Positions 34,321-57,701 are shown, counted from the first letter of the stretch. The stretch: 64,000 nucleotides of DNA from Patescibacteria group bacterium (GCA_041649315.1 JBAZNJ010000004.1:25060-89059), one strand, 5' to 3'. Notes: generated from the letters alone by a model not told the origin. Numbers and translations: made by a program.

Positions 34321-34328
34321 CGTTTCAT

Positions 34329-37735: not shown

Positions 37736-37764
37736 TTGACTAATAACTAGAAATAATGTATAAT
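37736..37764 (+). promoter_or_regulatory. Putative promoter of the abiEi/abiEii operon
   Basis: TTGACT (37736-37741), a 17-nt spacer, then TGTATAAT (37757-37764), 30 nt upstream of the start codon. Confidence 0.5.
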
Positions 37765-37794
37765 GGAAGTATGATTATTTCTTACTTCCGTTAG

Positions 37795-39076: not shown

Positions 39077-39093
39077 TAATTTATAAAAATCAC

Positions 39094-41226
39094 ATGACCC
39101 GTTCCGAGGCGCAAAAACGGATTGAGAAACTTAAGGCGGAAATTGACGCTCATCGCTATAATTACCATGTTTTAGACCAAGAAACGATTTCATCGGCGGC
39201 TTTAGATTCTTTAAAGCACGAAATCTTTCGTTTAGAAAACGACTGGCCGGGCTTAGTGACCCCGGATTCGCCGACTCAAAGGGTAGCTGGCGCGCCTTTG
39301 GAAAAATTTAAGAAAACCGCGCATAGCGAACCGATGATTTCGCTGTTTGATGCCTTTAGTGAGGAGGATATGCGCGCTTGGGCCGAGCGGAACGCTAATT
39401 ATTTAAAGCGGGATTTTGCGCCCGAGTATTATGCCGAATTAAAATTAGACGGCTTGGCGATAAATTTAAGATATGAGAAAGGGTTTTTGATTTCCGCGGC
39501 AACCCGGGGTGATGGCCGGGTCGGGGAAGAAGTGATTAGTAATGTTCGGACGATCGCCAGCATACCTTTGAAACTGCGGCGGCCGAGCGAGAAAGAATTG
39601 GCCGGCTTGGGCTTAAGCGTTGTCGAGGTTAAGCGTGTTTTAGACCTGGTTGATTCCGGCCGGATCGAGATTCGCGGGGAAGCGATAATGACTAAAAATG
39701 TTTTTGAACGCCTGAATAAGAAATACGCGCGTTTAGGCCAGGCGCTACTGGCTAATACCCGCAACGCCGTAGCCGGTTCAATTCGTCAGCTGGATGCAAA
39801 AATAGCGGCCGAACGGAAATTGGACTTCTATGCTTATGATTTATTATTGAATGGTTTGGAGCGCGGCAATGTTGTCGCGCGACGGGATCAGGCGGATCAG
39901 CTCGCTAATCTGTTCGGTTTAAAAACTTTGCGTCAGAATCGGCGCGCCCGGGGCTTAGAAGAAATTTTTGTTTTTTATCAGGAGATAGAAAAGAAACGCG
40001 AGCGTCTGCCTTTCCATATTGACGGCATTGTCGTGAAAATTAATGATTTAAAAATGTGGCCGATACTCGGAATTGTCGGCAAAGCGCCGCGCTATATGAT
40101 GGCCTATAAATTTTCCGCCGAACAGGCAACGACGAAAGTTCGGGCTGTGGCTTGGCAGGTCGGACGGACCGGCGCGCTCACGCCGACCGCGCTCTTAGAA
40201 TCGGTTAGGGTCGGCGGGGCCTTAATTAGCCGTTCAACTTTACATAATTTTGACGAAATTAAGCGATTGGATTTAAGAATCGGTGACACGGTTATTATTG
40301 AACGTTCCGGCGACGTGATTCCGAAAGTCATTAAGGTTTTGAAAAATCTGCGGGACGGGAAAGAAAAGAAAATCAGTCCGCCCGCGGTTTGTCCGATGTG
40401 CGGCGGCCGAGTTGTGCGAGAGGATGGGGAAGTCGCTTATCGTTGCGCCGACCGGCGCTGTTATGCCGTCGCTTTAAGGCAGATAATTCATTTTGTTTCT
40501 AAAGGCGCGGCTGATCTTGAGGGACTCGGGCCGAAAGTGATTGAACAATTTATGACCGCGGGGCTGATTAAAGACGCGGCGGATTTATATTTTCTTCGCC
40601 GGGAAGATTTACTTAGCTTAGAACGTTTTGCTGAAAAGAAAGCAGATAATATTTTAGCGATGATCGCGGCCCGGCGCGAATTATCTTTAGCTCGGTTTAT
40701 CTACGGCCTGGGAATCCGTCATGTCGGCGAAGAGACCGCGGAATTATTAGCCGGGACTTTAGAGCTTAAGATAGCCGGAGGATCGGCTATGGGCAAAATA
40801 AAGGTTCCGGAATTAATTAGAGTTTTTCAAAAATTAAAAACAGATGATTTGGAAAAATTTAGCGATATTGGCCCGATTGTGGCGGAAAGCATCGTTGAAT
40901 TTTGGCAAGATAAGCATAATTTAAAGATTTTAGAGAAATTTGACCGGGCCGGTATAGTTTTACTAATGAGCGAGAAAACGGCGCCTGGCGGCCAAAATAG
41001 GCCATTAAAAGACCAAATTTTCGTCCTAACCGGCGCTTTAGCTGGTTTGACAAGGGGGGAAGCGAAAGATAAAATAAAAGAGTTGGGCGGGAAAGTAAAG
41101 GATAGTGTAAGTCGGGAAACGGATTATGTCGTTGCCGGCGCCGACCCGGGCTCTAAGTATGAGCGGGCGAAGCAATTAGGGGTTAAAATTTTAAATGAGG
41201 AGGAATTTTTGAAGATGTTAAAATAG
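39094..41226 (+). CDS. ligA: NAD-dependent DNA ligase LigA
   Basis: 710 aa. Adenylation motif ELKLDGLA, OB fold, a Zn-finger CPMCGGRVVREDGEVAYRCADRRC, HhH repeats and a C-terminal BRCT (FVLTGALAGLTRGEAKDKIKELGGKV). Confidence 0.95.
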   Translation: MTRSEAQKRIEKLKAEIDAHRYNYHVLDQETISSAALDSLKHEIFRLENDWPGLVTPDSPTQRVAGAPLEKFKKTAHSEPMISLFDAFSEEDMRAWAERNANYLKRDFAPEYYAELKLDGLAINLRYEKGFLISAATRGDGRVGEEVISNVRTIASIPLKLRRPSEKELAGLGLSVVEVKRVLDLVDSGRIEIRGEAIMTKNVFERLNKKYARLGQALLANTRNAVAGSIRQLDAKIAAERKLDFYAYDLLLNGLERGNVVARRDQADQLANLFGLKTLRQNRRARGLEEIFVFYQEIEKKRERLPFHIDGIVVKINDLKMWPILGIVGKAPRYMMAYKFSAEQATTKVRAVAWQVGRTGALTPTALLESVRVGGALISRSTLHNFDEIKRLDLRIGDTVIIERSGDVIPKVIKVLKNLRDGKEKKISPPAVCPMCGGRVVREDGEVAYRCADRRCYAVALRQIIHFVSKGAADLEGLGPKVIEQFMTAGLIKDAADLYFLRREDLLSLERFAEKKADNILAMIAARRELSLARFIYGLGIRHVGEETAELLAGTLELKIAGGSAMGKIKVPELIRVFQKLKTDDLEKFSDIGPIVAESIVEFWQDKHNLKILEKFDRAGIVLLMSEKTAPGGQNRPLKDQIFVLTGALAGLTRGEAKDKIKELGGKVKDSVSRETDYVVAGADPGSKYERAKQLGVKILNEEEFLKMLK

Positions 41227-43880: not shown

Positions 43881-43967
43881 GGAGAGATGCGAGAGTGGTT
43901 TAATCGGCAGACCTGGAAAGTCTGTGTATTCGCAAGGGTACCGAGGGTTCGAATCCCTCTCTCTCCG
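43881..43967 (+). tRNA. tRNA-Ser (anticodon GGA), class II with long variable arm, no encoded CCA
   Basis: Hand-folded. Acceptor GGAGAGA/TCTCTCC. D stem CGA/TCG. Anticodon stem CAGAC/GTCTG with loop CTGGAAA. An 18-nt variable arm. T stem GAGGG/CCCTC with loop TTCGAAT. Discriminator G. Confidence 0.9.
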
Positions 43968-43994
43968 CAACATCGTGCTAGCACGAGGTAGTTT

Positions 43995-44024
43995 AAAACA
44001 GAGCTTTTAAAAGCTCTGTTTTTA
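43995..44024 (+). terminator. Perfect palindromic hairpin plus T-run downstream of tRNA-Ser
   Basis: aacagagctttt / aaaagctctgtt, followed by ttt. Confidence 0.7.
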
Positions 44025-44062
44025 ATTGGGAAAAAGCTAGTTTTTCCTTAAAATAAGCTATT

Positions 44063-44109
44063 TGACAACTTATGTCATTTTTTGACATTTTTATAAAATA
44101 TGTTAAAAT
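44063..44109 (+). promoter_or_regulatory. Promoter with phased TGACA/TGTCA half-sites upstream of the excisionase-type HTH gene
   Basis: Half-sites tgaca (44063-67), tgtca (44073-77) and tgaca (44083-87) sit at exact 10-bp spacing. atgtca-N5-tgacat forms an inverted repeat. The -35 TTGACA (44082-87) is followed by a 16-nt spacer, then TGtTAAAAT (44101-09). Confidence 0.5.
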
Positions 44110-44145: not shown

Positions 44146-44328
44146 ATGAGCGACCGAATAGAAAAACTTTTAACCATAGAGGAAGTAGCTGATATTTTGA
44201 GAGTGAGCACCAGAACTATTGTTAGGTATATAGAATCAGGAAAATTAAAAGCTTCTAAGATAGGTGTTTGGCGAATTAAGGAATCCGATGTTCACCTGTT
44301 TTTAGAGGAAACAAGTAATAAAAAATAA
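44146..44328 (+). CDS. Excisionase-family (MerR-like) HTH DNA-binding protein
   Basis: 60 aa. LLTIEEVADILRVSTRTIVRYIESGKLKASKIGVWRIKESDVHLFLEE is the classic 'DNA binding domain, excisionase family' pattern. Confidence 0.75.
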   Translation: MSDRIEKLLTIEEVADILRVSTRTIVRYIESGKLKASKIGVWRIKESDVHLFLEETSNKK

Positions 44329-44340
44329 GATTTAAATATT

Positions 44341-45915
44341 ATGGCTAATAATTTGAATAATTCTAAAGAACAAGAACGATCAGAGCTCCATCGAGCTATT
44401 TGGCAGATTGCTAATGACTTGCGAGGTAGTGTTGATGGTTGGGATTTTAAGCAGTATGTTCTTGGGATGCTCTTCTATCGTTTTATCAGCGAAAATCTTA
44501 CTAATTACATAAATGCTGATGAGCGCCGAACTGGCAAAAAAGATTTTGATTATGCCGTTATTTCTGACAAAGAAGCAGAATTTGGTCGTGTTGACACGGT
44601 AAAAGAAAAAGGTTTTTATATTTTGCCAAGTGAATTATTTGTAAATGTTTGTAAAAATGCACGTAATAATACAAATCTTAACGAAACTTTAGCCGAAGTA
44701 TTTCGCAATATTGAGAATTCAGCTAAAGGTGTAGATAGTGAAGATGATTTAAAAGGTCTTTTTGATGATATTGATATTAACTCTAAAAAATTAGGTAATA
44801 CTGTAGAACAAAGAAATCAAAAATTAGCCAAACTTTTGGAATCTATTGGTAATCTTCGTCTTGGTAATTATTCTGATAATACTATCGATGCGTTCGGCGA
44901 CGCTTATGAGTTTTTAATGACTATGTACGCCTCAAATGCTGGAAAGTCTGGTGGCGAGTTTTACACTCCTCAAGAAGTTGCCGAGCTTTTGGCAGAAATA
45001 ACTACAGTTGGGAAAAAAGAAGTTAATAAAGTATATGATCCTTGTTGTGGGTCTGGCTCTCTTCTTCTTAAGTTTGCCAAGGTTCTTGGAAAAGAAAATG
45101 TTAGACTTGGTTTTTATGGGCAAGAAATTAATATTACCACTTTCAATCTTTGTCGTATTAACATGTTTTTGCACGATATCAATTATAACCATTTCGATAT
45201 CGAGTTAGGAGACACATTAACTGATCCAAAACATTGGGACGATGAGCCATTTGACGCGATTGTTTCTAATCCCCCTTATTCTATTAATTGGGAAGGTGAT
45301 GCTAATCCGTTATTAATTAATGATCCGCGTTTTTCTCCTGCTGGCGTATTAGCCCCAAAAAGTAAGGCTGATTTAGCATTTATCATGCACATGCTTTCAT
45401 GGCTTTCGACTAGCGGAACAGCTGCAATTGTTGAATTTCCCGGAGTTTTATATCGTGGCGGAGCGGAACAAAAAATTCGTAAATATTTAGTTGATAATAA
45501 TTATATTGATACTGTAATTCAGTTGCCTCCAGATTTATTTTTTGGCGTAACGATTGCTACTTGTATTATTGTTCTTAAAAAAAGCAAGAAAGATAATAAA
45601 ACGTTGTTTATTGATGCTTCAAAAGAATTTGTTAGGGGTGGAAATAAAAATAAGTTAAGTGAAGAAAATCGTCTTAAGATTTTAGACACCTTTACTACTC
45701 GTAAAGATGCAGAATATTTTGCTAAATTAGTTGATAATAAAACCATCGCTGATAATGATTATAATATTGCTGTCTCTAGTTATGTCGTTAGTGAGGATAC
45801 TCGAGAGATAGTTGATGTTATAGAGCTTAATGAAAAAATCTCTAAGATTGTTGTTAGACAAAGTGAATTACGTGCGGCGATTGATAAGATTGTTGAAGAG
45901 ATTGAAAGCAAATAA
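44341..45915 (+). CDS. hsdM: Type I restriction-modification system methyltransferase subunit HsdM
   Basis: 524 aa. The N-terminal HsdM_N region has LWQIANDLRG-like IWQIANDLRGSVD. AdoMet motif VYDPCCGSGSLL and catalytic NPPY (VSNPPYS). Confidence 0.95.
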   Translation: MANNLNNSKEQERSELHRAIWQIANDLRGSVDGWDFKQYVLGMLFYRFISENLTNYINADERRTGKKDFDYAVISDKEAEFGRVDTVKEKGFYILPSELFVNVCKNARNNTNLNETLAEVFRNIENSAKGVDSEDDLKGLFDDIDINSKKLGNTVEQRNQKLAKLLESIGNLRLGNYSDNTIDAFGDAYEFLMTMYASNAGKSGGEFYTPQEVAELLAEITTVGKKEVNKVYDPCCGSGSLLLKFAKVLGKENVRLGFYGQEINITTFNLCRINMFLHDINYNHFDIELGDTLTDPKHWDDEPFDAIVSNPPYSINWEGDANPLLINDPRFSPAGVLAPKSKADLAFIMHMLSWLSTSGTAAIVEFPGVLYRGGAEQKIRKYLVDNNYIDTVIQLPPDLFFGVTIATCIIVLKKSKKDNKTLFIDASKEFVRGGNKNKLSEENRLKILDTFTTRKDAEYFAKLVDNKTIADNDYNIAVSSYVVSEDTREIVDVIELNEKISKIVVRQSELRAAIDKIVEEIESK

Positions 45916-45916
45916 T

Positions 45917-46408
45917 ATGGAAAAAGATATTTTATCCATTAAACAGCAAACTAGATTAGCTTTACCAACAGATAATTCATATTTATTTGGATTGGGTGTT
46001 GCCTTGTATGGATTCAACTCTATTAGTAGTTTTATGACTGAAATTATTTGTCATATTGACGATAGTCAAAATAGAACTAGATTATTAGATTTAACATCTG
46101 GAGAAGTTCTGAATATATTTCGGCAAACATTGAAAAATATAAAGTCTAAAAAACAATACAAAAGTATTTATACAATTATGAATGATGTGGCGAATATTTT
46201 CGAAATATTAAATTCAGAACGAACTGATTTTGTTCATGCTTATCCTATTACCAACAGAAGTAATGAGCAGATTTTACATCGCAGAAAGGATGAGAAGGGA
46301 AAATATTTTGAAGTAGACAATAATTTTTTAGATAGCTTTATTTCCCGATTGCATGATGTGAGTAGTGGATTATATAAAATACGTGCAATTGTAAAACCAC
46401 AAATTTAA
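45917..46408 (+). CDS. Small protein embedded between hsdM and hsdS; predicted all-alpha with an Rx4H motif (possible HEPN-like)
   Basis: The track ORF starts at 45830 inside hsdM. The ATG at 45917, 1 nt after the hsdM stop, gives 163 aa. The motif ILNSE-R-TDFV-H-AYP places Arg102 and His107 in Rx4H spacing. No other recognisable motif. Confidence 0.5.
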   Translation: MEKDILSIKQQTRLALPTDNSYLFGLGVALYGFNSISSFMTEIICHIDDSQNRTRLLDLTSGEVLNIFRQTLKNIKSKKQYKSIYTIMNDVANIFEILNSERTDFVHAYPITNRSNEQILHRRKDEKGKYFEVDNNFLDSFISRLHDVSSGLYKIRAIVKPQI

Positions 46409-46412
46409 TTGT

Positions 46413-47585
46413 ATGCATATTAATCAATCAAAAATTGAAGGGCTAATATCGGAACTTTGTCCAAAGGGTGTAGAAGTTTTTGGTTTAGGATCTATTTGTA
46501 AAATTGAAACAGGGAGGTTAAATGCCAATGCTGCTGTTGCAGGTGGTGATTATTTATTTTTTACAACCGCTAAAGAAATTAGCAAGATAGATAAATACCG
46601 ATGGGATACGGAAGCGTTACTTGTTGCTGGTAATGCGAATGTCGGTGATGTGAAACATTATATAGGAAAATTTGAAGCATATCAGAGAACTTATGTGTTA
46701 ACAAATTTTTTTAAGAAGATAAATGTTCGTTTTTTATATTTTGTTTTAAAAAATAATTTACAAGAATTTTTAAAAAGCAATTCAAATAGTGCGGCAATGA
46801 CTTATATTGTTTTATCTACGCTTGAAAACTTTAGAATCCCCGTCCCACCCCTCCCAATTCAAGAAGAAATTGTTAAAATTCTTGATAATTTTACAGAGCT
46901 GGAAGTAGAGCTGGAAGCAGAGCTGGAAGCAAGAAAAAATCAGTATGAACATTATAGGAACAAATTATTAACTTTTGGAAATGATATTGAATATAATAAT
47001 TTGGAACATATTTTTAATTTTAAAAATGGTTATACACCCTCAAAAGCAAAATCTAAATATTGGGAAAATGGAGATATACCATGGTTTAGAATGGAAGACA
47101 TAAGGAGTAACGGTAGAATTCTTGATAAATCGATACAATGTGTTAATAGATCTGGAGTAAAAGGAAAGGGTGTTTTTCCTAAAGATTCAATTATTGTAGC
47201 AACATCAGCAACGATTGGAGAGCATGCTTTAATTACTATACCTCATTTAACAAATCAGAGGTTTGTTTCTCTGTCTATAAAAGATGAATTAAAACAAAAA
47301 TTGAATATTAAATTTTTATTTTATTATTTTTTTGTAATAGATGAATGGTGTTTAAAAAATACAACTAAATCAAGCTTTTCGTCAGTAGATATGAATGGTT
47401 TTAGAAAATTTCCAATTCCAATTCCACCTATATCCGAACAAGAACGAATTGTTTCAACCCTTGATAAATTTGATGCGTTAGTAAATGATATTTCAATTGG
47501 TCTGCCAGCTGAACTTAAAGCTCGTCGTCAACAATATGAATATTATAGAAATAAACTTTTAACTTTCAAAGAATATGTCGGTTAA
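46413..47585 (+). CDS. hsdS: Type I R-M specificity subunit HsdS
   Basis: 390 aa. Two target-recognition domains are separated by a conserved coiled-coil helix, ...LEVELEAELEARKNQYEHYRNKLLTF. The C-terminal helix is similar: LPAELKARRQQYEYYRNKLLTF. Confidence 0.9.
   Translation: MHINQSKIEGLISELCPKGVEVFGLGSICKIETGRLNANAAVAGGDYLFFTTAKEISKIDKYRWDTEALLVAGNANVGDVKHYIGKFEAYQRTYVLTNFFKKINVRFLYFVLKNNLQEFLKSNSNSAAMTYIVLSTLENFRIPVPPLPIQEEIVKILDNFTELEVELEAELEARKNQYEHYRNKLLTFGNDIEYNNLEHIFNFKNGYTPSKAKSKYWENGDIPWFRMEDIRSNGRILDKSIQCVNRSGVKGKGVFPKDSIIVATSATIGEHALITIPHLTNQRFVSLSIKDELKQKLNIKFLFYYFFVIDEWCLKNTTKSSFSSVDMNGFRKFPIPIPPISEQERIVSTLDKFDALVNDISIGLPAELKARRQQYEYYRNKLLTFKEYVG
46896..46931 (+). repeat. 12-nt tandem repeat x3 (gagctggaagNa) in the central conserved region of hsdS
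   Basis: gagctggaagta, gagctggaagca, gagctggaagca, encoding ELEV-ELEA-ELEA. Confidence 0.9.
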
Positions 47586-50500
47586 TAATAAATACAATTT
47601 AGTTGCGGAGAGTACGCAGAGCACAGTTGTGGCTGAATATACTCCAAATGGAAAAAGAATCTCTGATTATCAAAGTGAGGCTGAATTAGAGAGTGCTTTT
47701 ATAGAACAGCTAAAAACTCAGGCTTATGAATATGTGGCCATAACCTCTGAGGCTGATTTAGTTTTGAATTTACGTAAGCAATTAGAGAAGTTAAATAATT
47801 TTAATTTTACTGACAGCGAATGGGATAATTTTTTTAATAGTGAAATTTCTAACCCTAATCAAAATATAGAAGATAAAACCGCGACCATTCAGGAAGATCA
47901 TATAAAAAACTTAGTTCGTGAAAATGGTTCAATAAAGAATGTTTATCTTTTAAAGAAGGATAATATTCATGATAATAATCTTCAGATTATTAATCAGTAT
48001 GCCACTGAGGATGGGCAAAGAGCTAATCGTTACGATGTTACAATTCTTGTTAATGGTTTACCTCTAATTCATGTTGAACTTAAACGTCGTGGAGTAGCTA
48101 TTCAGGAAGCCTTTAATCAAATTAATCGTTATCAGAGAGAAAGTTTTTGGGCTTCATCTGGTCTTTTCGAATATGTGCAATTGTTTGTAATTTCAAACGG
48201 CACTCATACAAAATATTATAGCAACACTACAAGATATCAGCATATCAAAGACTCTAATGATGGTGCTTCTAAGAAAGGTAAGCGCACTAGCAGCAGTTTT
48301 GAGTTTACTAGTTGGTGGGCTGATGCTACCAATAAACCAATTACTGATTTAATGGATTTTGCTAAGACATTTTTTTCTAAGCATGCTGTTTTAAATATTT
48401 TGACTAAATATTGCGTTTTTACGACTGACCACTTACTTTTAGTAATGCGTCCCTATCAAATTGTGGCTACTGAAAAGATATTGAATAGAATAGAAATAAG
48501 TACTAATTATAAAAAACTTGGCACCGTTGAGGCAGGTGGATATATTTGGCATACAACTGGCTCTGGAAAAACTTTGACTAGTTTTAAAACTGCTCAATTG
48601 GCTAGTAAATTGCCATATATTGATAAGGTTTTGTTTGTTGTCGATCGTAAGGATTTGGATTATCAGACAATGAAAGAGTATGATAAATTTGCCAAAGGAG
48701 CAGCTAATAGTAATACCAGTACAGCTATTTTAAAAAAGCAATTAGAAGATCCTAATGCTAATATTATTATTACTACTATTCAAAAACTGGATAGATTTAT
48801 TGGAAAAAATAAAGGGCATAATATTTTTGATGGTCATGTAGTTATTATATTTGATGAATGTCATCGATCCCAGTTTGGTGAAATGCATGCGGCTATTACT
48901 AAAGCCTTTAATAATTACCACCTTTTTGGTTTTACCGGTACTCCTATTTTTGCGATTAATTCTTCTTCTGGTGGGCGGATTGATTTTAAGACTACAGAGC
49001 AAGCCTTTGGTGAAAAATTACATGCCTATACTATTGTTAACGCTATTGCTGATAAAAATGTTTTACCATTTAAGGTCGATTATATTTCCACAGTTAAAGA
49101 GGCTGAAAATATTGAGGATAAAAAGGTTAGTGATATTGATCGAGAAGCAATTTTAGCCGCTCCTGAGCGCTTAGAAAATATTGTTCGCTATATTTGTGAA
49201 CACTTTGATCAAAAAACTAAACGCAATAGTTTTTATAAAATAAAAGAGAGAAGGTTGGCTGGATTTAATTCTATTTTTGCCGTTTCCTCTATTGATGTTG
49301 CAAAAAAGTATTATGCTGAATTTAAAAAACAACTTTTAGATTTACCAAGTGATAAGCGTCTTAAAATTGCGATAATTTATAGTTTTGGGGTTAATGATGA
49401 AGATGCCGATGGTTTAGTTGACGAAAATTTAGAGGACACTAGCGGACTAGATCTTAGTTCAAGAGATTTCTTAGAAAATGCGATTATTGATTACAATTCA
49501 ATCTTTGGTACTTCTTATGACACTTCATCTGATAAATTCCAAAATTATTATAAAGATGTCAGCCAAAGAGTAAAGGATAGAGAAGTTGATATTTTGATTG
49601 TAGTTAATATGTTTTTAACTGGCTTTGATGCCACCACTTTAAATACTCTATGGGTTGATAAAAATTTAAGATTGCACGGATTACTACAAGCCTATTCTCG
49701 CACGAATCGTATTTTAAATAGTGTTAAAACTTTTGGTAACATTGTTTGTTTTCGTAATTTAGAGAAAGCTACCAACGAATCAATTTCATTATTTGGTGAT
49801 AAAGAGGCTAGTGGCATTGTTTTGCTTAAATCTTATGCTGAATATTACAATGGCTATAAAGATGGTAATAAAGAAGTTCGAGGATATGTCAGCTTAGTTG
49901 ATGAATTAATGGAGAAATTTCCAGTTAGCGTTAGGATTGACAGCGAACTAGCTCAAAAAGAGTTTATTAAACTTTATAGCAATATTTTGCGTTTACGAAA
50001 TATTTTAACAACTTTTGACGAGTTTTCTAAAGATGAAATTTTTACAGAATATGATATTCAAGATTATCACAGCATGTATATTGATTTGTATAATGAATTT
50101 CGTAAAGCTAAAGAAAGCGAAAAAGAAAATGTTAATGATGATGTCGTGTTTGAAATGGAGCTTATTAAACAGGTCGACATTAATATTGATTATATCTTGG
50201 GATTAATTAAAAAATACCACGAAGATCATACCAAAAATCGAGAAATATTGGTTGATATTAATAAAGCGATTGATGCCAGCGTTGAATTAAGAAATAAAAA
50301 GGATTTGATCAATCAATTTATTTCCTCGCTCGATATTAATTCTGTTGTTGATGCGGACTGGCAGAGTTTTATGAATAAGAAAAAAGTTGAGGAGCTTGAA
50401 CAGATTATTAAAACTGAAGAACTCGATTATGAGGCTACGTATAAGTTTATTAAAAATTCCTTTAGAGATGGTTCAATTGCAGTTTCGGGTACGGCTATAA

Positions 50501-50649
50501 CTAAAGTTTTACCGCCAGTATCTCGATTTTCGCCAGATGGCGAACGAACAAAGAAGCGTGAAACTGTCTTAACAAAATTGACTAGCTTTTTTGAAAGGTT
50601 TTTTGATATTTCTGATGTAAAATTTTTCGACGGTAATCTAAAAAAGTAA
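47575..50649 (+). CDS. hsdR: Type I R-M restriction subunit HsdR (SF2 helicase/translocase + nuclease)
   Basis: 1024 aa. The N-terminal PD-(D/E)xK region reads RYDVTILVNGLPLIHVELKR. Helicase motif I HTTGSGKT, motif II IIFDECHRS and motif VI QAYSRTNR. It overlaps hsdS by 11 nt. Confidence 0.95.
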   Translation: MSVNNKYNLVAESTQSTVVAEYTPNGKRISDYQSEAELESAFIEQLKTQAYEYVAITSEADLVLNLRKQLEKLNNFNFTDSEWDNFFNSEISNPNQNIEDKTATIQEDHIKNLVRENGSIKNVYLLKKDNIHDNNLQIINQYATEDGQRANRYDVTILVNGLPLIHVELKRRGVAIQEAFNQINRYQRESFWASSGLFEYVQLFVISNGTHTKYYSNTTRYQHIKDSNDGASKKGKRTSSSFEFTSWWADATNKPITDLMDFAKTFFSKHAVLNILTKYCVFTTDHLLLVMRPYQIVATEKILNRIEISTNYKKLGTVEAGGYIWHTTGSGKTLTSFKTAQLASKLPYIDKVLFVVDRKDLDYQTMKEYDKFAKGAANSNTSTAILKKQLEDPNANIIITTIQKLDRFIGKNKGHNIFDGHVVIIFDECHRSQFGEMHAAITKAFNNYHLFGFTGTPIFAINSSSGGRIDFKTTEQAFGEKLHAYTIVNAIADKNVLPFKVDYISTVKEAENIEDKKVSDIDREAILAAPERLENIVRYICEHFDQKTKRNSFYKIKERRLAGFNSIFAVSSIDVAKKYYAEFKKQLLDLPSDKRLKIAIIYSFGVNDEDADGLVDENLEDTSGLDLSSRDFLENAIIDYNSIFGTSYDTSSDKFQNYYKDVSQRVKDREVDILIVVNMFLTGFDATTLNTLWVDKNLRLHGLLQAYSRTNRILNSVKTFGNIVCFRNLEKATNESISLFGDKEASGIVLLKSYAEYYNGYKDGNKEVRGYVSLVDELMEKFPVSVRIDSELAQKEFIKLYSNILRLRNILTTFDEFSKDEIFTEYDIQDYHSMYIDLYNEFRKAKESEKENVNDDVVFEMELIKQVDINIDYILGLIKKYHEDHTKNREILVDINKAIDASVELRNKKDLINQFISSLDINSVVDADWQSFMNKKKVEELEQIIKTEELDYEATYKFIKNSFRDGSIAVSGTAITKVLPPVSRFSPDGERTKKRETVLTKLTSFFERFFDISDVKFFDGNLKK

Positions 50650-50653
50650 ATAT

Positions 50654-51946
50654 ATGGCCAAGAAAAATGTTAAAGGCGAATATTTATATAAAGAAAATAA
50701 AACTAAAAAAGTATTTTATTTTCGTGATGATTTGCAAAAAATAAATATAATTTCCAGAATCGTTTTTAAAAATAAAAAACACGAAATCCATTATCCTTTT
50801 TCTAAAGACGGAAGACAGAAATATAATTATATTAAAGAAATATCTTATAATGGATTATCAAGTCCTCTTCCTAGAGGATTAATTAAGGACTCAAAATTAG
50901 GATATGGATTTACAAAAGTGCTATCACCTATAATTTATCAGATAGATAGGGTTCTTAAGCCTAATAAATTAGAAGTTTCAAATAATGGCAAAACAAGAAT
51001 AGACAAAAAAACATTATATATCAGTTATGCGGAACTAAATAAGGTGTACCCCAAAATTGATTCATTGCTTCAGCGACATTCAAAAGAAAAAGAGGTGACT
51101 GCACAAAAATTTCTATCCTTATTTTTCCCAAAAAACTTTAAAGATCTTAAAGACACGTATATTAAAGGAACTTTATACTCGATAATCTCTGATCAAGTTA
51201 AAGATGATGTAAAAAAAATATCTAAAGATGACTTTGACTCAATATTGGGGTTAACTTTAAGAGAATTAAAAAATCAAGGAGTAGAATCTAAGAAGGTGGT
51301 GTTGGAAACAAGAGAAAAAATTGAAAGGCGCTTTTTAGAAGACGCGATCATTTATTTTCAAAAACTATCACAAAGAAAACTTGACAATAATAAATTGGAG
51401 AAAGACTGGGAAAAATTTCTTATAGAAAATCCATGGATTATTTCTAATTTATTTGCAACACCCGTGTTCTTTTTTCAGAATCAAGCATACGTTGGCGGGA
51501 AAGAAATAAACAATTCTAATGGAAAGGTTACTGATTTTCTTTATAAAAATGAATTCACTGATAATATTGCTGTTATTGAGCTAAAAACGCATAAGACCAA
51601 TTTATTATCGTCTAAACCATACAGGGGCAAGGACGTCTATTCATTATCAGTAGAGCTTTCGGGCGCAGTTAATCAAGTTTTAAACCAGCGACAGAATTTA
51701 ATTCAAGAGTTTATAAAACTTAGAACTAAAGATGAGTGGTTTGAATCTTATAATCCAAAGTGTCTAGTTATTGCTGGTAGTATTGCTGACTTACCAAAAA
51801 ATGGAGCTAAAACTTTCGATATTTTTAGAAATAGCTTGCAGGGTGTGGAAATAATTACTTTCGATGAGTTACTTAAGAAACTCGAATTTTTTAATGTGTT
51901 AATTAAAGGCGGTAAGAAAAAAAGAGGGCGAGAAAAAAGGTTTTAA
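50654..51946 (+). CDS. Shedu-like protein (C-terminal DUF4263 PD-(D/E)xK nuclease domain, SduA-type) with an unassigned N-terminal region
   Basis: 430 aa. The C-terminal ~180 aa reads EKDWEKFLIENPWIISNLF...KVTDFLYKNEFTDNIAVIELKTHKT...AVNQVLNQRQNL...CLVIAGSIADL...EIITFDELL. This matches the DUF4263 pattern (D...E-x-K, Q-x-x-x-Y-like helix, ...TYDEL). It starts 5 nt after hsdR. Confidence 0.65.
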   Translation: MAKKNVKGEYLYKENKTKKVFYFRDDLQKINIISRIVFKNKKHEIHYPFSKDGRQKYNYIKEISYNGLSSPLPRGLIKDSKLGYGFTKVLSPIIYQIDRVLKPNKLEVSNNGKTRIDKKTLYISYAELNKVYPKIDSLLQRHSKEKEVTAQKFLSLFFPKNFKDLKDTYIKGTLYSIISDQVKDDVKKISKDDFDSILGLTLRELKNQGVESKKVVLETREKIERRFLEDAIIYFQKLSQRKLDNNKLEKDWEKFLIENPWIISNLFATPVFFFQNQAYVGGKEINNSNGKVTDFLYKNEFTDNIAVIELKTHKTNLLSSKPYRGKDVYSLSVELSGAVNQVLNQRQNLIQEFIKLRTKDEWFESYNPKCLVIAGSIADLPKNGAKTFDIFRNSLQGVEIITFDELLKKLEFFNVLIKGGKKKRGREKRF

Positions 51947-51981
51947 GAAAGTAAGAAAAATATATTAAGTATAATTAAGAT

Positions 51982-52194
51982 ATGAAAAAATATAAAATTT
52001 ATTTTGATAGAGACGGTATTGAGCCAGCGGAAATTGTAATTACCGGGGAAGGTAATAATTGTCGAGTTGGCGCTGTAAGAGTGCAACATGAAACCATCTT
52101 TTTTAATTGCCAAGGAACTCTTGAAAATATATTAAAAAAAATTAGTGATAAACTAGGAAAATATGGTATTAAAAAAATAGAACCTATAATATAG
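51982..52194 (+). CDS. Small hypothetical protein (70 aa)
   Basis: The ORF lies between the Shedu-like gene and the PD-(D/E)xK/DUF5655 gene on the same strand. No recognisable motif. Confidence 0.4.
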   Translation: MKKYKIYFDRDGIEPAEIVITGEGNNCRVGAVRVQHETIFFNCQGTLENILKKISDKLGKYGIKKIEPII

Positions 52195-52218
52195 TTATAT
52201 TCTTAATTAATAAAAATT

Positions 52219-53136
52219 ATGCCACTTTTTAAACAGGATAGTAATAAATTATCCATCATTCAAGAAAAAAATATTGATCTAGAAAAAACAGTTCAAAAAT
52301 TAACTGAAAGTAATTTGGATAATATTTTTAGTTTGGAATTTGTTAGCACTGAATTTGCTTTGCATAACTTTAGAATTGACACCTTAGCCTTTGATCAAGA
52401 AAATAATTCTTTTGTTATTATAGAGTATAAAAGAGATCGAAGTTTCAGTGTTATTGATCAGGGTTATGCTTATTTGGCTTTAATGCTTAATAATAAGGCA
52501 GATTTTATTTTAGAATATAATGAGAAAACAAAGAATAGTCTAAAGAGGGACGATGTTGATTGGTCGCAGTCTAAGGTTATTTTTGTGGCAAATTCCTTTA
52601 CGTCTTATCAGATGAATGCGATTAATTTTAAAGATTTGCCGATAGAGCTTTGGGAAGTGAAAATGTATGATAATGATGTAGTTTTATATAACCAGTTATT
52701 ATCTCAAGACTCTAAAGAATCAATAAAAACTATTACTAAAAATAAAACTATAAATAAGGTAAGTAGCGAAGTTAAGGTGTATACGCTAGAGGATCATCTT
52801 AGCATTCCAGAAGATATAAAAAACCTATTTTTTGCTTTAAGAGAAAAAATTTTATCGCTTAGTGATTCCGTGGAAGAAAGACCTAAACAAAATTATGTGG
52901 CCTATCGATTAAAGAATGCTTTTGCCTATGTTCATAATCAACAGTCAAAAATAAAAATTCATTTGGAAATAAGAAAAAAAGATTTGGACGATCCAAAAAA
53001 TATGGCTAGAAATGTTGAAGGAATTGGACATCATGGCGGAGGAGAGACTGAGGTTATTTTAAATAGGTCTGAAGATTTAAATTACGTTTTTCTGCTAATA
53101 GAACAGGCTTATAATAGGATATCTAAAAAATCTTAA
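52219..53136 (+). CDS. PD-(D/E)xK nuclease-like N-terminal domain + DUF5655-like C-terminal domain protein
   Basis: 305 aa. FRIDTLAFDQENNSFVIIEYKRD...IDQG fits a D...E-x-K...Q nuclease core. The C-terminal ERPKQNYVAYRLKNAFAYVHNQQSKIKIHLEI resembles DUF5655. Its stop codon overlaps the stop of the convergent recombinase gene. Confidence 0.55.
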   Translation: MPLFKQDSNKLSIIQEKNIDLEKTVQKLTESNLDNIFSLEFVSTEFALHNFRIDTLAFDQENNSFVIIEYKRDRSFSVIDQGYAYLALMLNNKADFILEYNEKTKNSLKRDDVDWSQSKVIFVANSFTSYQMNAINFKDLPIELWEVKMYDNDVVLYNQLLSQDSKESIKTITKNKTINKVSSEVKVYTLEDHLSIPEDIKNLFFALREKILSLSDSVEERPKQNYVAYRLKNAFAYVHNQQSKIKIHLEIRKKDLDDPKNMARNVEGIGHHGGGETEVILNRSEDLNYVFLLIEQAYNRISKKS

Positions 53137-54416
53137 TTAATTAGAACAGTTTTATTTTGAAGTAGTATTTTCCCGTTTAAACACGTAAGTAATTCTCGTT
53201 TCTCTTGATCATCACCCTCCTGTAGTAAAAACTTGATATAATTTTTAACATCGACGTCGCTCACGTCGATGTTTTGATTTTTGCCAGTCGCCATTATTTG
53301 AAATTTCTTAAATCTTTTTATTTCTCCTTCAATTTTATCTTGAACTGGTAACTTCTTGAAATCTAATTTCTCAACCTGCTTTTGTAATTGTTTTATTAAG
53401 TCTTCTTCGCTGATATAACCCGACTTACAATTTTTATCTTTTGCTTTGGTACAGCCATAATAAATATGACGGTTAAAACCTCCATTTTTTAATTTCTTAA
53501 ATTTTTCTGTTGCTGATATTCCTGAACCACATAAACCACAGGTCATAATTTTGGTAAAAGCGAATTCAATATTTTCTCGTCTAACTAATTGGGAATTCTT
53601 CATTTGATCTTGAACTAAATCAAATAATTCCTTGGTTATCAGTGGCTCGTGTTTGCCTTGATACCAATTACCACTGCCTCGGGGATATTCAAAGGGGCCA
53701 TAGTAGAAAGTATTTTCAAGAAGACGGTAGATATTTCCTAAACTTAAATGCTTTTTTCCTAGCGCGGTTCTAAAATTTAAATCAAATCGTAACCAATTAT
53801 AAATCTTTCGGCCTGACCATTTTTCATAAGCGACTTTTTCAAACATCTGTCTGATAACGTGGCCCCTGTCTGGGTCGATCAAACATTGTCCCTTATGATC
53901 AACTTGTTTTTCTTTAAAGTAACCAGTCGGCGGGCAAGTCGGCCATAAACCTTTTTCACATCTAGCTCTTAAACCTCTTTTGACGTTTATGCCACGATTA
54001 TCATTTTCGAGTTTTGCTTGAGAACATAGAATCATGAGCAGAAACTTTTCGTTTGGAGAATTACTAAATGTTTGGCCAAAGGTGCGAATACTCATTAATT
54101 TCTTCTCATCCATTAAATCAACTAAGGATCCTAAGTCACCAGCATTTCTTGAAAGTCTATCAGGTGCCCAGGTTAAAATAGCGTTAAATTTCTCTTCAGC
54201 TATGTCTTTTAATAACTCCTTAAAGATGGGGCGATTGCCAGAATCTTTGGCGGACTTTGATTCTCGTCTAATATCAACGATTTCCAAATTTTCTCTTTCA
54301 GCAATTTGAAGCATTTCCTTAACCTGTGAATCGATTGATTGGACTTGTCGCTCGTCTGATTCAGTACTCTTTCTAGCATAAAGACAGTATTTTAGCTCAG
54401 TTTCTAATGGAGGCAT
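53133..54416 (-). CDS. Large serine recombinase (resolvase domain + recombinase domain + zinc ribbon)
   Basis: 427 aa. The N-terminal CLYARKSTESDERQVQSIDSQ carries the catalytic Ser motif, followed by DRLSRN. The C-terminal Zn ribbon is CGLCGSGISA...YYGC. Confidence 0.85.
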   Translation of the reverse strand: MPPLETELKYCLYARKSTESDERQVQSIDSQVKEMLQIAERENLEIVDIRRESKSAKDSGNRPIFKELLKDIAEEKFNAILTWAPDRLSRNAGDLGSLVDLMDEKKLMSIRTFGQTFSNSPNEKFLLMILCSQAKLENDNRGINVKRGLRARCEKGLWPTCPPTGYFKEKQVDHKGQCLIDPDRGHVIRQMFEKVAYEKWSGRKIYNWLRFDLNFRTALGKKHLSLGNIYRLLENTFYYGPFEYPRGSGNWYQGKHEPLITKELFDLVQDQMKNSQLVRRENIEFAFTKIMTCGLCGSGISATEKFKKLKNGGFNRHIYYGCTKAKDKNCKSGYISEEDLIKQLQKQVEKLDFKKLPVQDKIEGEIKRFKKFQIMATGKNQNIDVSDVDVKNYIKFLLQEGDDQEKRELLTCLNGKILLQNKTVLIN

Positions 54417-54486
54417 ATGATTTAATAGTTAATTATTAGTTAAATCTACGCCTCCATTAATGACACACTTTTAAGGTTCTGCTAAG

Positions 54487-54538
54487 CAGCTAGCTGTTGG
54501 TAACTTGTCGATAACTTTTCCTTTAATATTAAAGGAAA
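54487..54538. promoter_or_regulatory. Palindromes in the terL-recombinase intergenic region (candidate protein-binding site or terminator)
   Basis: cagctagctg (54487-54496) is a 10-bp perfect palindrome. tttcctttaatattaaaggaaa (54517-54538) is a 22-bp perfect palindrome lying 3 nt downstream of the terL stop. Confidence 0.35.
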
Positions 54539-54540
54539 TA

Positions 54541-56013
54541 TTACCAATATAAGGTATAAACTCTTGGTGGATTAGGGCGTTTATCCAGTAAACTGTGGGC
54601 CAAATTAACAAAAGCATCAGCTAGATCATCATGTTTTTCAACTCCAAAATGAACTATTTGTTGGATTAACTCTTCAGCCCCTTTTCTTGGAAATAGTATT
54701 TGCCCGTTTTTAATCATATTAGCTGTCAGAACAAGTCGGGTGCGTTTATCTTGGCTTCCTGGGTGTGTAGTCATGACATTGCCAATCCCCTCAACTTTTA
54801 ACTGTTGAGGAAGAGCTTTTTGATAAGCGACATCTTCCACGACCAACCTGACGAGATCATAATCCTTTTTATAACTCTCATACATAACCTTGCAGGTATC
54901 GATGGTTTCGGGGAAGTTAAGCCGTCTATTGATTATCTTCGGCAGAATATAAATTTTGTATCCTGTTTTCGTTTCAAATAGTAACCCAGGCACCATGGCT
55001 GTATAATCAGCGACGGAACTTTGAGAGATAGCAGGATCAATACCGATTCTAACTTCAAGATGTGATTTATATCCGCCGTACATATCCATTCTTTCTGGAA
55101 TCTCATCATAATAATTAATCCATTCAGGGTAAATAGCTTGGTCATCACTGGGAACAATATTTAACAGATATTCTTGTTGCCAAGTAATCTCATTGCCAAC
55201 TTTTTTCCGCTCGGCTTCAATATCTTTATCGGTTGGGTATTTACCAGGCCACAAGCAAATACCTTTTTTATTGATTAACGGGTAGAAAAGGAAATTGCCA
55301 TCAATAATTTCTTTTTCCTTTTCTTCTTTTAATCTCATAAGCAAAGAATCTTCATGTAAGAGGTTTCCCACTATAACCAGTCTTGTGTCCTTATCGCCAG
55401 CAGGAATAACCTCGCTCTTAAGCCATTGATAGGTTTTATTGCGGCCATCTCTGGTTTTGGTTGAGCTAATATCTTCCACATCATCGCAAATAATCAAATC
55501 AGGCCGATTTTCGTAATGTCTAATACCTCTAATACTTTGATCAACAGAAGCGACGGTAATTCTGGCATCAGTATTTGAAAAGACAATTGATTGAGCGCCC
55601 CATTCATCGCTATTTTCTCGAAATGGGCCCAAGTCTTTTTTAAGTAGGTCATTATCTTCTAATTCTCGGCGCAGATTCATCATGTGTTGTTTAGCTTGCG
55701 CTTGGGTTTGACAGAAAATAACGACAAACTTCTTTTGCTGTTTGCCGAGTATCGCCCAAATCGGATAAGCGGCGGTAATAATAGTTGATTTGCCTGATCC
55801 TCTAAAAGCCACCACAAACAAATTTTCTTTGTGACTGGATTCAATTAAAGAAATTATGTTTTTCTGAAAATCCGCTGTTTCATATTTAACATAATGGGCG
55901 TAGTAGAAGTGAAAGAAATAAGAAAAACTTTCCCTAGTTATCGCCGTTCTTATTTTCTTGTCCTGGGTCATTTGCTCCACCATTTCTTGTGGAATCATCT
56001 TGTTTACTATCAT
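54541..56013 (-). CDS. terL: Phage terminase large subunit (TerL)
   Basis: 490 aa. Walker A AFRGSGKST and a Walker B-like LIICDDVED. The C-terminal RNaseH-like nuclease region has an acidic residue pattern (VVEDVAYQ..., HDDLADAF). Confidence 0.8.
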   Translation of the reverse strand: MIVNKMIPQEMVEQMTQDKKIRTAITRESFSYFFHFYYAHYVKYETADFQKNIISLIESSHKENLFVVAFRGSGKSTIITAAYPIWAILGKQQKKFVVIFCQTQAQAKQHMMNLRRELEDNDLLKKDLGPFRENSDEWGAQSIVFSNTDARITVASVDQSIRGIRHYENRPDLIICDDVEDISSTKTRDGRNKTYQWLKSEVIPAGDKDTRLVIVGNLLHEDSLLMRLKEEKEKEIIDGNFLFYPLINKKGICLWPGKYPTDKDIEAERKKVGNEITWQQEYLLNIVPSDDQAIYPEWINYYDEIPERMDMYGGYKSHLEVRIGIDPAISQSSVADYTAMVPGLLFETKTGYKIYILPKIINRRLNFPETIDTCKVMYESYKKDYDLVRLVVEDVAYQKALPQQLKVEGIGNVMTTHPGSQDKRTRLVLTANMIKNGQILFPRKGAEELIQQIVHFGVEKHDDLADAFVNLAHSLLDKRPNPPRVYTLYW

Positions 56014-56428
56014 ATGTGTTTGTATTATTAATTATTAATTGCTCATCGGCTGGTAATAGTTTTGCCAGTTTCAAAGCATGTTTTACTACTTCTGCTTGAG
56101 CAGGAGTTAGTTCGTCGGTATCTTCCGTTTTGGAAGTTACCTCAATCTTATCTTTAAACCTCGGATTGCGATGTCTAAGCCAAAAGCTGATCGCTGACCA
56201 ATTCTTTTCTTTAATCATTGTTAAGAGTTGGCTTTCGCTCATGTCGTTTACTAGAGCCTCACCTTCGGCTAAGGCCTCATCCATTACTTTCGAGAATTTT
56301 TTGTCCTCTCGTTTCCAGCGATAAATGCTGTTACGAGATACACCTGATTTTTCACAGGCGACTAAAACGATAGGCACTTTCTTAAGCTCGTTAAAGAAAG
56401 CTTCTTGTAATCGGCTTTTCTTAGACAT
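55934..56428 (-). CDS. Terminase small subunit-like HTH protein
   Basis: 164 aa. N-terminal HTH (VACEKSGVSRNSIYRWKREDKKF). It sits immediately upstream of terL and overlaps it by 80 nt if both annotated starts are used. Confidence 0.55.
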   Translation of the reverse strand: MSKKSRLQEAFFNELKKVPIVLVACEKSGVSRNSIYRWKREDKKFSKVMDEALAEGEALVNDMSESQLLTMIKEKNWSAISFWLRHRNPRFKDKIEVTSKTEDTDELTPAQAEVVKHALKLAKLLPADEQLIINNTNTYDSKQDDSTRNGGANDPGQENKNGDN

Positions 56429-57701
56429 GCTCCACCACCTCCTTTCTGCCTGTTAATTTTCGATATCTTGCTATCGCCAAATCACAGAAAATTGGCTCAA
56501 GTTCTATCGCATAAACTTTCCTTTTTAATTGCTCACCAGCAATAATGGTGCTGGCTGATCCCGAGAAAGAATCAAGAATAATATCTCCAGGCTTAGTACA
56601 GCGCCTTATAGCCTTTTCGTAGAGCTTTGGGGGCTTACTGGTGGCATGTTCGTAATCTTTACCTGAAATACGCTTGGTAAGCCAAATATCTAAAGAATCA
56701 TAGATATCTTCAAACATTTCATTACCAGTACCAAGCTCTTTGTTTAATACCTCGTTATAGTTTTTAATATCAGAATTGATATATGGCTTGCCTTTAACCC
56801 CATAAACGGCAGGTTCATAACACTTATTGAAAGCAATTTTAGGAGTAGGGTTTTGTGAATTTTTAAGCCACAAACAAACTCGCTTATTTATTATTCCTAG
56901 TTCTCGATATAACTCTTGAAATAAGCCGATATATGTTTGGTCGCACCAGTAAAATACATGGCAGTCATTTTTAGTGTTCGGCAAAGCGGCTAAAAGAGAA
57001 TTCTTAATAAACTGCTTATATTCTTCATAACTTCTATTGTCATTAACCGTTCCGCCATAATCATTTTTACCGCCAATGCCTTTGGAATAGTCTAATTTAA
57101 TGTTATAGACTGGATCAGAAAATATCATTGAGGCCCTGTCATTACCAAATAATCTTTTTAGGTTATCGGGGTTGGTAGAATCGCCACAAAGTAGGCGATG
57201 TTCGCCTAAATGTATTAGGTCACCTGGTTTAGTTTTTGGTGTCTTTATCTTTTTTAACTCTGCCTCAACATCAAAGTCCTCATCTTTTACTTCTAATTCT
57301 TTATCCCAGAAATAAGATAAATCGACTTGATCAAAACCAATATCAACTAAGAGGTCTAGGTCAAATGTCTTTAACTTTTCAAAATCCCAATCACCACCTA
57401 AAGCGTTGCTGGAAATAAGATATCTTTTAGTCTCATCTTCGGTTAGTTGACGATTAGGGATCCTAACATCAATTAGCTCCTCACCTCTGCCAAGGATTTG
57501 AAGGGCCTTAACTCGCTGGTGGCCGGCCAAAATTTTGCCAGTTAAGTCGATGGCTGGAATTTCGACTAAATTAAATTTAGCCAAACTTTTCTTAAGATCA
57601 GACATTTGTTTATCACTGATCTTTCTAGGGTTAACATCTTGGGGAACAAGATCGTTAACTCTTTTTTGCACTGTGTGCCATTGGAGTTTTTCTGCTTTCA
57701 T
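56421..57701 (-). CDS. ParB-like nuclease domain fused to an N4/N6 DNA methyltransferase
   Basis: 426 aa. The N-terminus has a ParB-like NPRKISDKQMSDLKKSL...GHQRVKAL. The methyltransferase motif IV variant is SDPVYN. The C-terminal AdoMet motif is ILDSFSGSASTIIAG. Confidence 0.8.
   Translation of the reverse strand: MKAEKLQWHTVQKRVNDLVPQDVNPRKISDKQMSDLKKSLAKFNLVEIPAIDLTGKILAGHQRVKALQILGRGEELIDVRIPNRQLTEDETKRYLISSNALGGDWDFEKLKTFDLDLLVDIGFDQVDLSYFWDKELEVKDEDFDVEAELKKIKTPKTKPGDLIHLGEHRLLCGDSTNPDNLKRLFGNDRASMIFSDPVYNIKLDYSKGIGGKNDYGGTVNDNRSYEEYKQFIKNSLLAALPNTKNDCHVFYWCDQTYIGLFQELYRELGIINKRVCLWLKNSQNPTPKIAFNKCYEPAVYGVKGKPYINSDIKNYNEVLNKELGTGNEMFEDIYDSLDIWLTKRISGKDYEHATSKPPKLYEKAIRRCTKPGDIILDSFSGSASTIIAGEQLKRKVYAIELEPIFCDLAIARYRKLTGRKEVVEHV

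Follow-up and report, generated by a model that had tools for sequence, protein, structure and literature searches.

We analyzed a 64,000-nt stretch of the genome of a Patescibacteria group bacterium (GCA_041649315.1, JBAZNJ010000004.1:25060-89059; hereafter, the window), in which positions 44146-53136 of the + strand hold a compact array of defense genes. The array comprises 8 co-directional open reading frames (ORFs; Table 1): a gene for a small helix-turn-helix (HTH) protein, the type I restriction-modification (R-M) genes hsdM, hsdS, and hsdR with orf163 lying between the first 2, the Shedu nuclease gene sduA, orf70, and a gene for a PDC-S18/DUF5655 protein, which we call S18. In gene order, the intervals are 12, 1, 4, -11, 4, 35, and 24 nt. 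An initial annotation, made by reading the window, had described 9 co-directional, tightly packed genes with gaps between -11 and +36 nt; the shared direction, the packing, and the range of gaps (measured as -11 to +35 nt) were borne out, but the number of genes was not, as the ORF listing gives 8 and the annotation's own list also sums to 8. The gene identities that it proposed were all recovered with Pfam and PADLOC. The longest ORF at orf163 begins at 45830; we set the start at the ATG at 45917, one base past the hsdM stop, because the 163-aa length of the product then equals that of all homologues. At its far end, the array runs into a convergent gene for a large serine recombinase, and the overlap of stop codons that had been reported there is real: the TTAA at 53133-53136 contains the TAA of S18 (53134-53136, +) and that of the recombinase gene (53133-53135, -).

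Table 1. Features of the defense array and of its flanks in the window.
Feature	Position	Strand	Basis and remarks
tRNA-Ser(GGA)	43881-43968	+	ARAGORN, Rfam
Perfect 14-bp palindrome TCGTGCTAGCACGA	43973-43986		5 nt past tRNA-Ser; unique in the window; 0.07 chance matches expected
Hairpin CAGAGCTTTT/AAAAGCTCTG with T-run	43999-44023	+	Read from the sequence; kept in L005 (two copies) and L097
Candidate promoter/operator	44062-44109	+	TTGACA within inverted repeat TGACAACTTATGTCA (44063-44077); second TTGACA (-35) at 44082-44087; extended -10 TGtTAAAAT ending at 44109
HTH_17 protein, 60 aa, first gene	44146-44328	+	Excisionase/MerR-like, DNA-binding
hsdM, type I methyltransferase	44341-45915	+	Pfam, PADLOC
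orf163, 163 aa	45917-46408	+	166 homologues
hsdS, specificity subunit	46413-47585	+	Pfam, PADLOC
hsdR, EcoR124-type (type IC) restriction/translocase subunit	47575-50649	+	Pfam, PADLOC
sduA, Shedu nuclease	50654-51946	+	Pfam, PADLOC
orf70, 70 aa	51982-52194	+	Homologues in other elements
S18 (PDC-S18/DUF5655), last gene	52219-53136	+	PADLOC, Pfam
Large serine recombinase, convergent with the array	53133-54416	-	Resolvase PF00239, Recombinase PF07508, Zn_ribbon_recom PF13408; phrog_95 integrase 8e-62
Hairpin with 11-bp arms, then T-rich TTTGATTTTTG	53247-53273	+	111 nt past the S18 stop, in the 3' portion of the recombinase coding sequence
TerL, TerS-like HTH protein, ParB-domain DNA methyltransferase	54541-57701	-	phrog_38 3e-82 (TerL), TerS phrogs, phrog_498 9e-84

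By gene content, hsdMSR is a complete EcoR124-type (type IC) type I R-M system, for which restriction activity is predicted. HsdM matched N6_Mtase (PF02384, 5.4e-115) and HsdM_N (PF12161, 2.9e-20) in Pfam and MTase_I in PADLOC (1e-133), whereas HsdS matched Methylase_S (PF01420, 6.8e-58) over 2 stretches, corresponding to 2 target-recognition domains, and PADLOC Specificity_I (1e-107). Nearly the full length of HsdR was covered by HSDR_N (PF04313), SWI2_SNF2/ResIII (PF18766/PF04851), T1R_D3 (PF22679), and EcoR124_C (PF12008), and the protein reached 1160 bits with PADLOC REase_I. HsdS is just 39-62% identical to its counterparts in the sister elements described below, a divergence typical of target-recognition-domain swapping. 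The leading HTH_17 protein (Pfam, 2.6e-17; TIGR01764, 3.5e-12) is the presumed regulator of the array; homologues (74-88% identity) are the leading genes of R-M operons, of type I or type III, in 4 of the contigs used for comparison, which are designated here by L numbers (L005, L006, L086, and L097). The methylation-associated defense system (MADS) was considered and excluded: the HTH protein obtained 27.6 bits with the NCBIfam MAD1 model against a cutoff of 80, and in PADLOC, the methylase, specificity, and restriction genes fit type I models far better than mad2/mad5.

Of the 2 nucleases encoded behind hsdR, SduA matched SduA_C (PF14082, 7.3e-23) and the PADLOC SduA model (9.4e-77); its PD-(D/E)xK domain forms the C-terminal part (residues 241-417), no domain is assigned to the ~240 aa at the N terminus, and alignment with Bacillus cereus SduA (8ti8, 3e-31) reveals a DFLY...IE-x-K pattern, that is, the D...ExK residues are retained. 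The S18 protein fits the PADLOC model PDC-S18 (PDLC04945, 1.8e-116) over its full length (residues 1-298) and carries DUF5655 (PF18899, 2.1e-12) at the C terminus. D54, E69, and K71 of its N-terminal PD-(D/E)xK nuclease domain are invariant in an alignment of 36 homologues, and Foldseek matched its AlphaFold2 model (predicted local distance difference test [pLDDT] score of 89.8) to NucS/EndoMS (5gke, 2vld) with a probability of 1.0 and to the Shedu nuclease domain (8ti9) with a probability of 0.94. With the invariant residues, the model matches, and the Pfam and PADLOC assignments in agreement, the earlier description of the last gene as PD-(D/E)xK plus DUF5655 stands, and we infer that S18 is a NucS-like nuclease with a predicted anti-phage role. 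Sequence searches against solved structures gave nothing informative for S18 or orf163. In the literature searched, we found no paper describing PDC-S18, the status of which is that of a computational candidate.

The small ORFs of the array, orf163 and orf70, may likewise have anti-phage activity. The orf163 family consists of 166 homologues of ~163 aa, none with a Pfam domain, in which R102-x-D104-x-x-H107 and residues Q118, I119, L120, R122, and R123 of a QILHRR stretch are invariant and H121 is found in at least 90% of sequences. The label "Rx4H ORF" given in the initial annotation was apt, as an Rx4-6H motif is present, with R102 and H107 invariant in 43 sequences; a HEPN assignment was nevertheless not adopted, since the invariant motif was accompanied by neither a sequence-family nor a structure match. 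The AlphaFold2 model of orf163 (pLDDT 89.7) gave no significant neighbor in a structural search. In 4 of 6 distinct contexts, orf163 separates hsdM from hsdS in an EcoR124-type system (in the window, L097, the Saccharibacteria contig L114, and the Lactococcus contig L095, where it comes after a Fic gene); the remaining contexts are beside a dnd cluster in Pseudomonas aeruginosa and in a region of Stenotrophomonas maltophilia resembling an integrative and conjugative element. The orf70 family is rare, with 4 small homologues among 1.8e9 cluster representatives and a length of 70-74 aa. Its members outside the window (L100:5101-5313, L104:910-1128, and L101:8001-8225) and the window gene itself are found in different settings, namely, after 2 unrelated SduA genes (window and L100), directly after hsdR (L104), and in an island resembling a cyclic oligonucleotide-based anti-phage signaling system (CBASS; L101), with 2 of the 4 homologues occupying the same hsdR-proximal slot. 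A chance ORF was ruled out by the full-length homologues (43-54% identity) in the same slot of other elements, and an obligate Shedu partner by the occurrence of orf70 without SduA behind hsdR in L104 and in the CBASS-like island of L101. To judge from these sequences, orf70 is a real but rare gene, which moves as an indel cassette and is tied to no single SduA.

Signals around the array are consistent with its transcription as one HTH-controlled unit, which we regard as plausible. The top promoter-like site in a scan of 12 kb, a sigma-70-like TTGACA-16-TAAAAT with TG (11/12 match; 44082-44109), is located just before the HTH gene and, with the adjoining repeat, may function as a promoter/operator; the motif is kept in L097, L098, and L005 and partly in the distant L006, the R-M genes of which are only ~41-42% identical. 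The hairpin at 43999-44023 looks like the terminator of the tRNA gene and would insulate the array from upstream transcription. An insertion is seen at this point in L005, where ~740 additional nt, including a 206-aa ORF (L005:3062-3798), lie between the tRNA-Ser terminator hairpin and the second hairpin copy, upstream of the HTH promoter. At the opposite end, the hairpin at 53247-53273, which is conserved in 5 elements while the adjoining bases differ, is a candidate terminator for the defense array. A terminator scan of the + strand found no terminator-like site within 44146-53136, the first being that at 53247-53273, and the gaps of the array are too short to accommodate terminators. The initial annotation had seen no terminator in the array and had read it as one transcription unit; the former holds, and the latter is plausible given the leading conserved promoter, the short gaps, and the lack of an internal terminator.

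Comparison with sister elements, which were recovered with S18, orf163, orf70, and YafQ as query handles, delimits a variable position between hsdR and the recombinase gene. In 8 related elements, the flanks (promoter/operator, HTH gene, hsdMSR, and recombinase/TerL) display 75-98% protein identity where present, while the genes between them differ. The slot holds SduA, orf70, and S18 in the window, and SduA (94%) and S18 (83%) followed by the recombinase (92%) in L003, from which orf70 was lost by an indel of ~230 nt that left its last 23 nt. In L100, hsdR (97%) is followed by a different SduA (465 aa, 29% identity), an orf70 homologue (54%), and the recombinase (98%), without S18. S18 directly follows hsdR (85%) in L005 and precedes a 217-aa ORF, a reverse transcriptase, and the recombinase (95%), whereas L097 and L098 carry only a YaaC-family gene between hsdR (92%) and the recombinase (93%). 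L002 has hsdR (92%) and S18 (94%), then unrelated genes, and is without the recombinase; L004 and L006 have the order HTH, hsdMSR, DUF87 ATPase, and S18, with a tyrosine integrase farther on; and in L104, hsdR (75%) is followed by the orf70 homologue and an RNase H-like gene (RVT_3). Nucleotide homology between the variants ends ~25-35 nt before the hsdR stop and restarts either with the last 7-16 nt ahead of the S18 start codon or at the stop codon of the recombinase gene, and the C-terminal tails of HsdR and the recombinase vary among variants, with breakpoints in the last ~10 codons of each gene. The position is therefore a cargo slot bounded by 2 conserved genes. Given that homology resumes so close to its start, the S18 cassette has no conserved promoter of its own.

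The array and the slot belong to an island of ~20 kb (about 43.97-64.1 kb) and low GC content, with the left edge directly downstream of tRNA-Ser(GGA). In the composition profile, GC content falls from ~45% to ~30% right after the tRNA gene and does not recover before the window ends; on contig L099, which is 100% identical to the window from the recombinase to YafQ, it is back to 43-50% ~170 nt past the window end (window-equivalent ~64.17 kb), before a polysaccharide-synthesis gene, hence the size estimate. Housekeeping genes (ligA, gatC, gatA, and a dsbA-like gene) lie to the left of tRNA-Ser. The closest genome, Candidatus Falkowbacteria GW2011_GWF2_43_32 (L005), is syntenic across gatA, dsbA, tRNA-Ser, and the island, and the elements of L005 and L097 likewise start right after a tRNA-Ser gene. 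The palindrome following tRNA-Ser is kept behind tRNA-Ser(GGA) in L005 and tRNA-Ser(TGA) in L097 and may serve in recombination or in processing. An insertion point within the tRNA gene was ruled out: the window and L097 have tRNAs that differ from end to end, with matching acceptor stems, and the shared element sequence hence begins after the tRNA. Rfam identified no non-coding RNA besides the tRNA in 43-64 kb. No att direct repeats were found at the island ends; the left end is fixed to ~5 nt after tRNA-Ser, and the sole candidate for the right end is a short acceptor-stem-like string on L099, with no sequence matching the left end. This string (CCCTCTCCGCC) lies beyond RelB/YafQ together with a terminator, just before the GC rise. 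The initial annotation was also correct that no att-like sequence separates the cargo from the recombinase gene, as the whole array is inside the island, the left edge of which is at tRNA-Ser.

The recombinase, TerL, TerS-like, and ParB-methylase genes (53133-57701, -) form the conserved backbone of the island. The same block is present in IMG/VR contigs L087-L091 and L106-L111, with 46-68% protein identity and different cargo in each; L087, for example, combines a type III R-M system with a reverse transcriptase, and L109 has a type I R-M system. No capsid, tail, or other structural phage genes were recognized in the ~20-kb island, which could be a satellite-like element of Patescibacteria. 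The rest of the island contains ORFs without an assignment, a second HTH_17 gene, and RelB/YafQ. The second HTH_17 gene (66 aa; 62313-62513, -; placed via L099:8689-8889) and the RelB/YafQ toxin-antitoxin pair (63304-63897) are located at the right end. A 939-aa ORF (58620-61439), which matched no family, contains 3 tandem 24-nt repeats (TTTCTTCGAAAGAGATTGATGGAG) at 59200-59282; the ORF at the corresponding position in L003 encodes a KAP NTPase domain.

We consider it probable that the region is the defense-cargo arm of the integrative island, in which an R-M operon is extended by swappable, autonomous cassettes, probably on one transcript. According to this reading, the conserved promoter/operator and the small HTH_17 regulator would head the complete EcoR124-type operon, and promoter-less single-gene cassettes would have been added at 2 places: orf163 between hsdM and hsdS, and SduA, orf70, and S18 in the slot, which would extend from the 3' end of hsdR to the 3' end of the convergent serine recombinase gene. 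Related elements would trade the cassettes, for which homologous recombination in the conserved flanking genes is the simplest mechanism. Expressed as a single regulated transcript, the array would provide layered defense by methylation-based restriction, a Shedu nuclease, and a NucS-like nuclease, with each module autonomous and sharing expression, not mechanism, with the others.

Several points weigh against this reading. Internal promoters may be present, given the many promoter-like hexamers in the AT-rich (30% GC) DNA of the array, and TATAAT strings occur just before orf70 and ~29 nt before S18. The HTH protein, being of the excisionase type and located at the island edge, might be a recombination directionality factor instead of an operon regulator. 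Mobility by means of the serine recombinase is putative, the searches having found no att repeats, and the sister elements are metagenome contigs, several of them truncated. Finally, SduA and S18 recur right behind ATP-dependent restriction subunits of unrelated families, namely, type IC, type IB (L007), and type III (L085/L086), which could reflect a functional link with restriction beyond a convenient insertion site.

Were the modules merely clustered, each would have its own promoter, and the tight spacing would be a consequence of genome compactness only. We deem this unlikely. Short distances are indeed common in this compact genome, with 51% of the other co-directional junctions of the window also at or below 36 nt (median, 29 nt), and the promoter-like hexamers and TATAAT strings mentioned above fit such an arrangement, as does the behavior of S18 elsewhere: PADLOC lists it as a candidate system of one gene, and its upstream gap exceeds 100 nt in most of 80 other species-level genomes, surveyed over 10 kb around S18, so that it is presumably self-expressed there. 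However, the hexamers are not enriched in the array (61 found versus 51.6 +/- 8.1 expected from shuffled sequence), the single strong conserved promoter sits before the HTH gene, and the cassettes have no upstream sequence in common with their sister-element counterparts. Moreover, 4 junctions with a gap of 1-4 nt or an 11-nt overlap argue for translational coupling. The 7 consecutive tight junctions are the longest such run in the window (runners-up, 5 and 4), with a chance of ~0.51^7, or about 0.01, assuming independence.

A bolder proposal, which we put forward only as a speculative and rather doubtful extension, is that the elements represent an undescribed satellite-like family of Patescibacteria (serine recombinase, TerL, TerS-like protein, and ParB-methylase, without capsid genes) with a regulated "plug-in" defense operon. 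The HTH/operator leader would drive any installed type I or type III system; promoter-less SduA, PDC-S18, YaaC, and orf70 cassettes would go specifically behind the restriction subunit, as they would act on DNA ends or stalled translocase complexes; and orf163 and orf70 would be new accessory or regulatory components.

The initial annotation had favored functional coupling of the nucleases over mere clustering. In its strong form, type I R-M, Shedu, and the PD-(D/E)xK/DUF5655 protein would make up one coupled system, in which HsdR could, for instance, generate DNA ends that feed or activate SduA and S18. The recurrence of the SduA and S18 clades behind R subunits, with gaps of 4-39 nt (the window, L002, L003, L005, L007, L085, and L086), speaks for such a system. 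So does the published enrichment of Shedu inside R-M and bacteriophage exclusion (BREX) loci: R-M loci of types I-IV contained 602 of the 5,499 Shedu genes counted in one study, and complementation by Shedu was proposed (Gu et al., bioRxiv 10.1101/2023.08.10.552793). Also in favor, another preprint reports that Shedu senses DNA ends (bioRxiv 10.1101/2023.08.10.552762). In metagenomes, the 2 closest SduA relatives (72% identity; L085/L086) are encoded next to a type III system, 4 nt after its Res gene; in L086, this system is headed by a homologue (74%) of the HTH protein of the window. No SduA relatives were found in IMG/VR. The distribution of S18 points the other way. Among its 7,525 matches, the closest share 51-94% identity and come from Patescibacteria, Bacteroidota, Cyanobacteria, and Archaea; an SduA-like gene is present within 10 kb of S18 in 0 of the 80 surveyed genomes and R-M-like genes in 16. 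SWI2_SNF2/ResIII helicase domains are encoded by just 2 of 71 immediate upstream neighbors of S18 (L005 and L007), and N6_Mtase, UvrD-helicase, and EcoR124_C have one member each; downstream (n = 69), N6_Mtase was found 5 times, N6_N4_Mtase 3, Eco57I 3, and EcoRI_methylase 2, these being per-family counts that may overlap. This neighbor profile is that of a free-standing defense-island gene. Within the element family, SduA and S18 occur one without the other (L100, L005, and L002) or neither is present (L097), the unrelated YaaC, DUF87, reverse transcriptase, and RNase H-like genes occupy the same slot, and the cited literature treats Shedu as a stand-alone single-gene system. The adjacency of SduA and S18 is thus not conserved outside the immediate element family, and with SduA, orf70, and S18 found separately or replaced by unrelated genes, and with S18 neighbors so heterogeneous, the preference for functional coupling was not upheld. 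Obligate coupling of the 3 nucleases is not supported, and we consider a coupled system improbable.

It is very unlikely that the island is a decaying prophage remnant with lost mobility and the defense genes as fixed chromosomal cargo: although structural phage genes and an att direct repeat were not found and L005, a related genome, has the island at the same chromosomal site, the backbone ORFs are all intact and keep 75-98% identity across several independent metagenome contigs (46-68% in the wider IMG/VR set), and the location of the L097 element, after another tRNA-Ser (TGA) and in other surroundings, implies recent movement.

The reading of the region as an R-M operon with exchangeable cassettes introduces no new defense principle, as Shedu in restriction loci, genes embedded in type I systems, and small leading regulators are already documented. 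Nuclease cassettes do occur behind restriction subunits, but this looser pattern had been recognized before: as in the loci of Gu et al., an SduA/DUF4263 nuclease adjoins R-M genes in the same orientation, whereas here, the Shedu position is a replaceable slot, and the closest SduA relatives are attached to type III, not type I, systems. A second parallel is the RRDM island of enteropathogenic Escherichia coli, which opens with the gene for the small repressor RptR and carries DarTG2 within its type I R-M system, at a site that the authors call a likely recombination hotspot (PMC12255303). In both loci, the first ORF encodes a small DNA-binding protein, and a single promoter region in which operator motifs are repeated precedes a type I R-M system with an inserted, unrelated defense module. 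They differ in that the regulator in the window is of the HTH_17/excisionase type; the insertions are between hsdM and hsdS and after hsdR, rather than between hsdS and hsdR; the cargo consists of nucleases rather than a toxin-antitoxin pair; and RRDM has been studied experimentally, whereas the window is known from its sequence.

Variable slots for defense cargo are also a feature of mobile elements, for example, the hotspots in P2/P4-type prophages and satellites. Like these, the island has conserved flanks around variable anti-phage genes and is an element with integrase and packaging genes; in contrast to them, it resides in a Patescibacteria-type host, one flank of its slot is the 3' end of hsdR, with the cargo in the reading direction of the R-M genes, and its backbone comprises a serine recombinase, TerL, a TerS-like protein, and a ParB-methylase, with no capsid genes seen. 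As for PDC-S18 of PADLOC, the last gene fits the model over its full length and is 51-94% identical to bacterial and archaeal homologues, but it is here the last gene of an array headed by R-M genes, whereas most of the 80 other genomes show a sizeable upstream gap.

What distinguishes an otherwise ordinary, if tidy, defense island is its Patescibacteria host, the sharply defined slot, and 3 uncharacterized gene families. The sister elements amount to a natural experiment, with near-identical backbones (HsdR and recombinase up to 97-98% identical) and different defense genes at one position, and the locus illustrates how defense repertoires are reshuffled in small Patescibacteria genomes. Genes worth cloning are PDC-S18 (NucS-like, with over 50% identity across Bacteria and Archaea), orf163 (which occupies the hsdM-hsdS interval in 2 phyla), and orf70.

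Elsewhere in the window, a second low-GC patch (30-39%) at 34000-39100, just before ligA, contains genes for a DUF4143/AAA_14 ATPase and for an AbiEii toxin, the latter preceded by a small ORF, and is probably another small defense islet. A 1455-aa ORF at 29894-34261 gave no match in Pfam, and short dips in GC content (30-34%) are seen at 25000-26000 and 29000-30000 in this otherwise ~45% GC part of the window.

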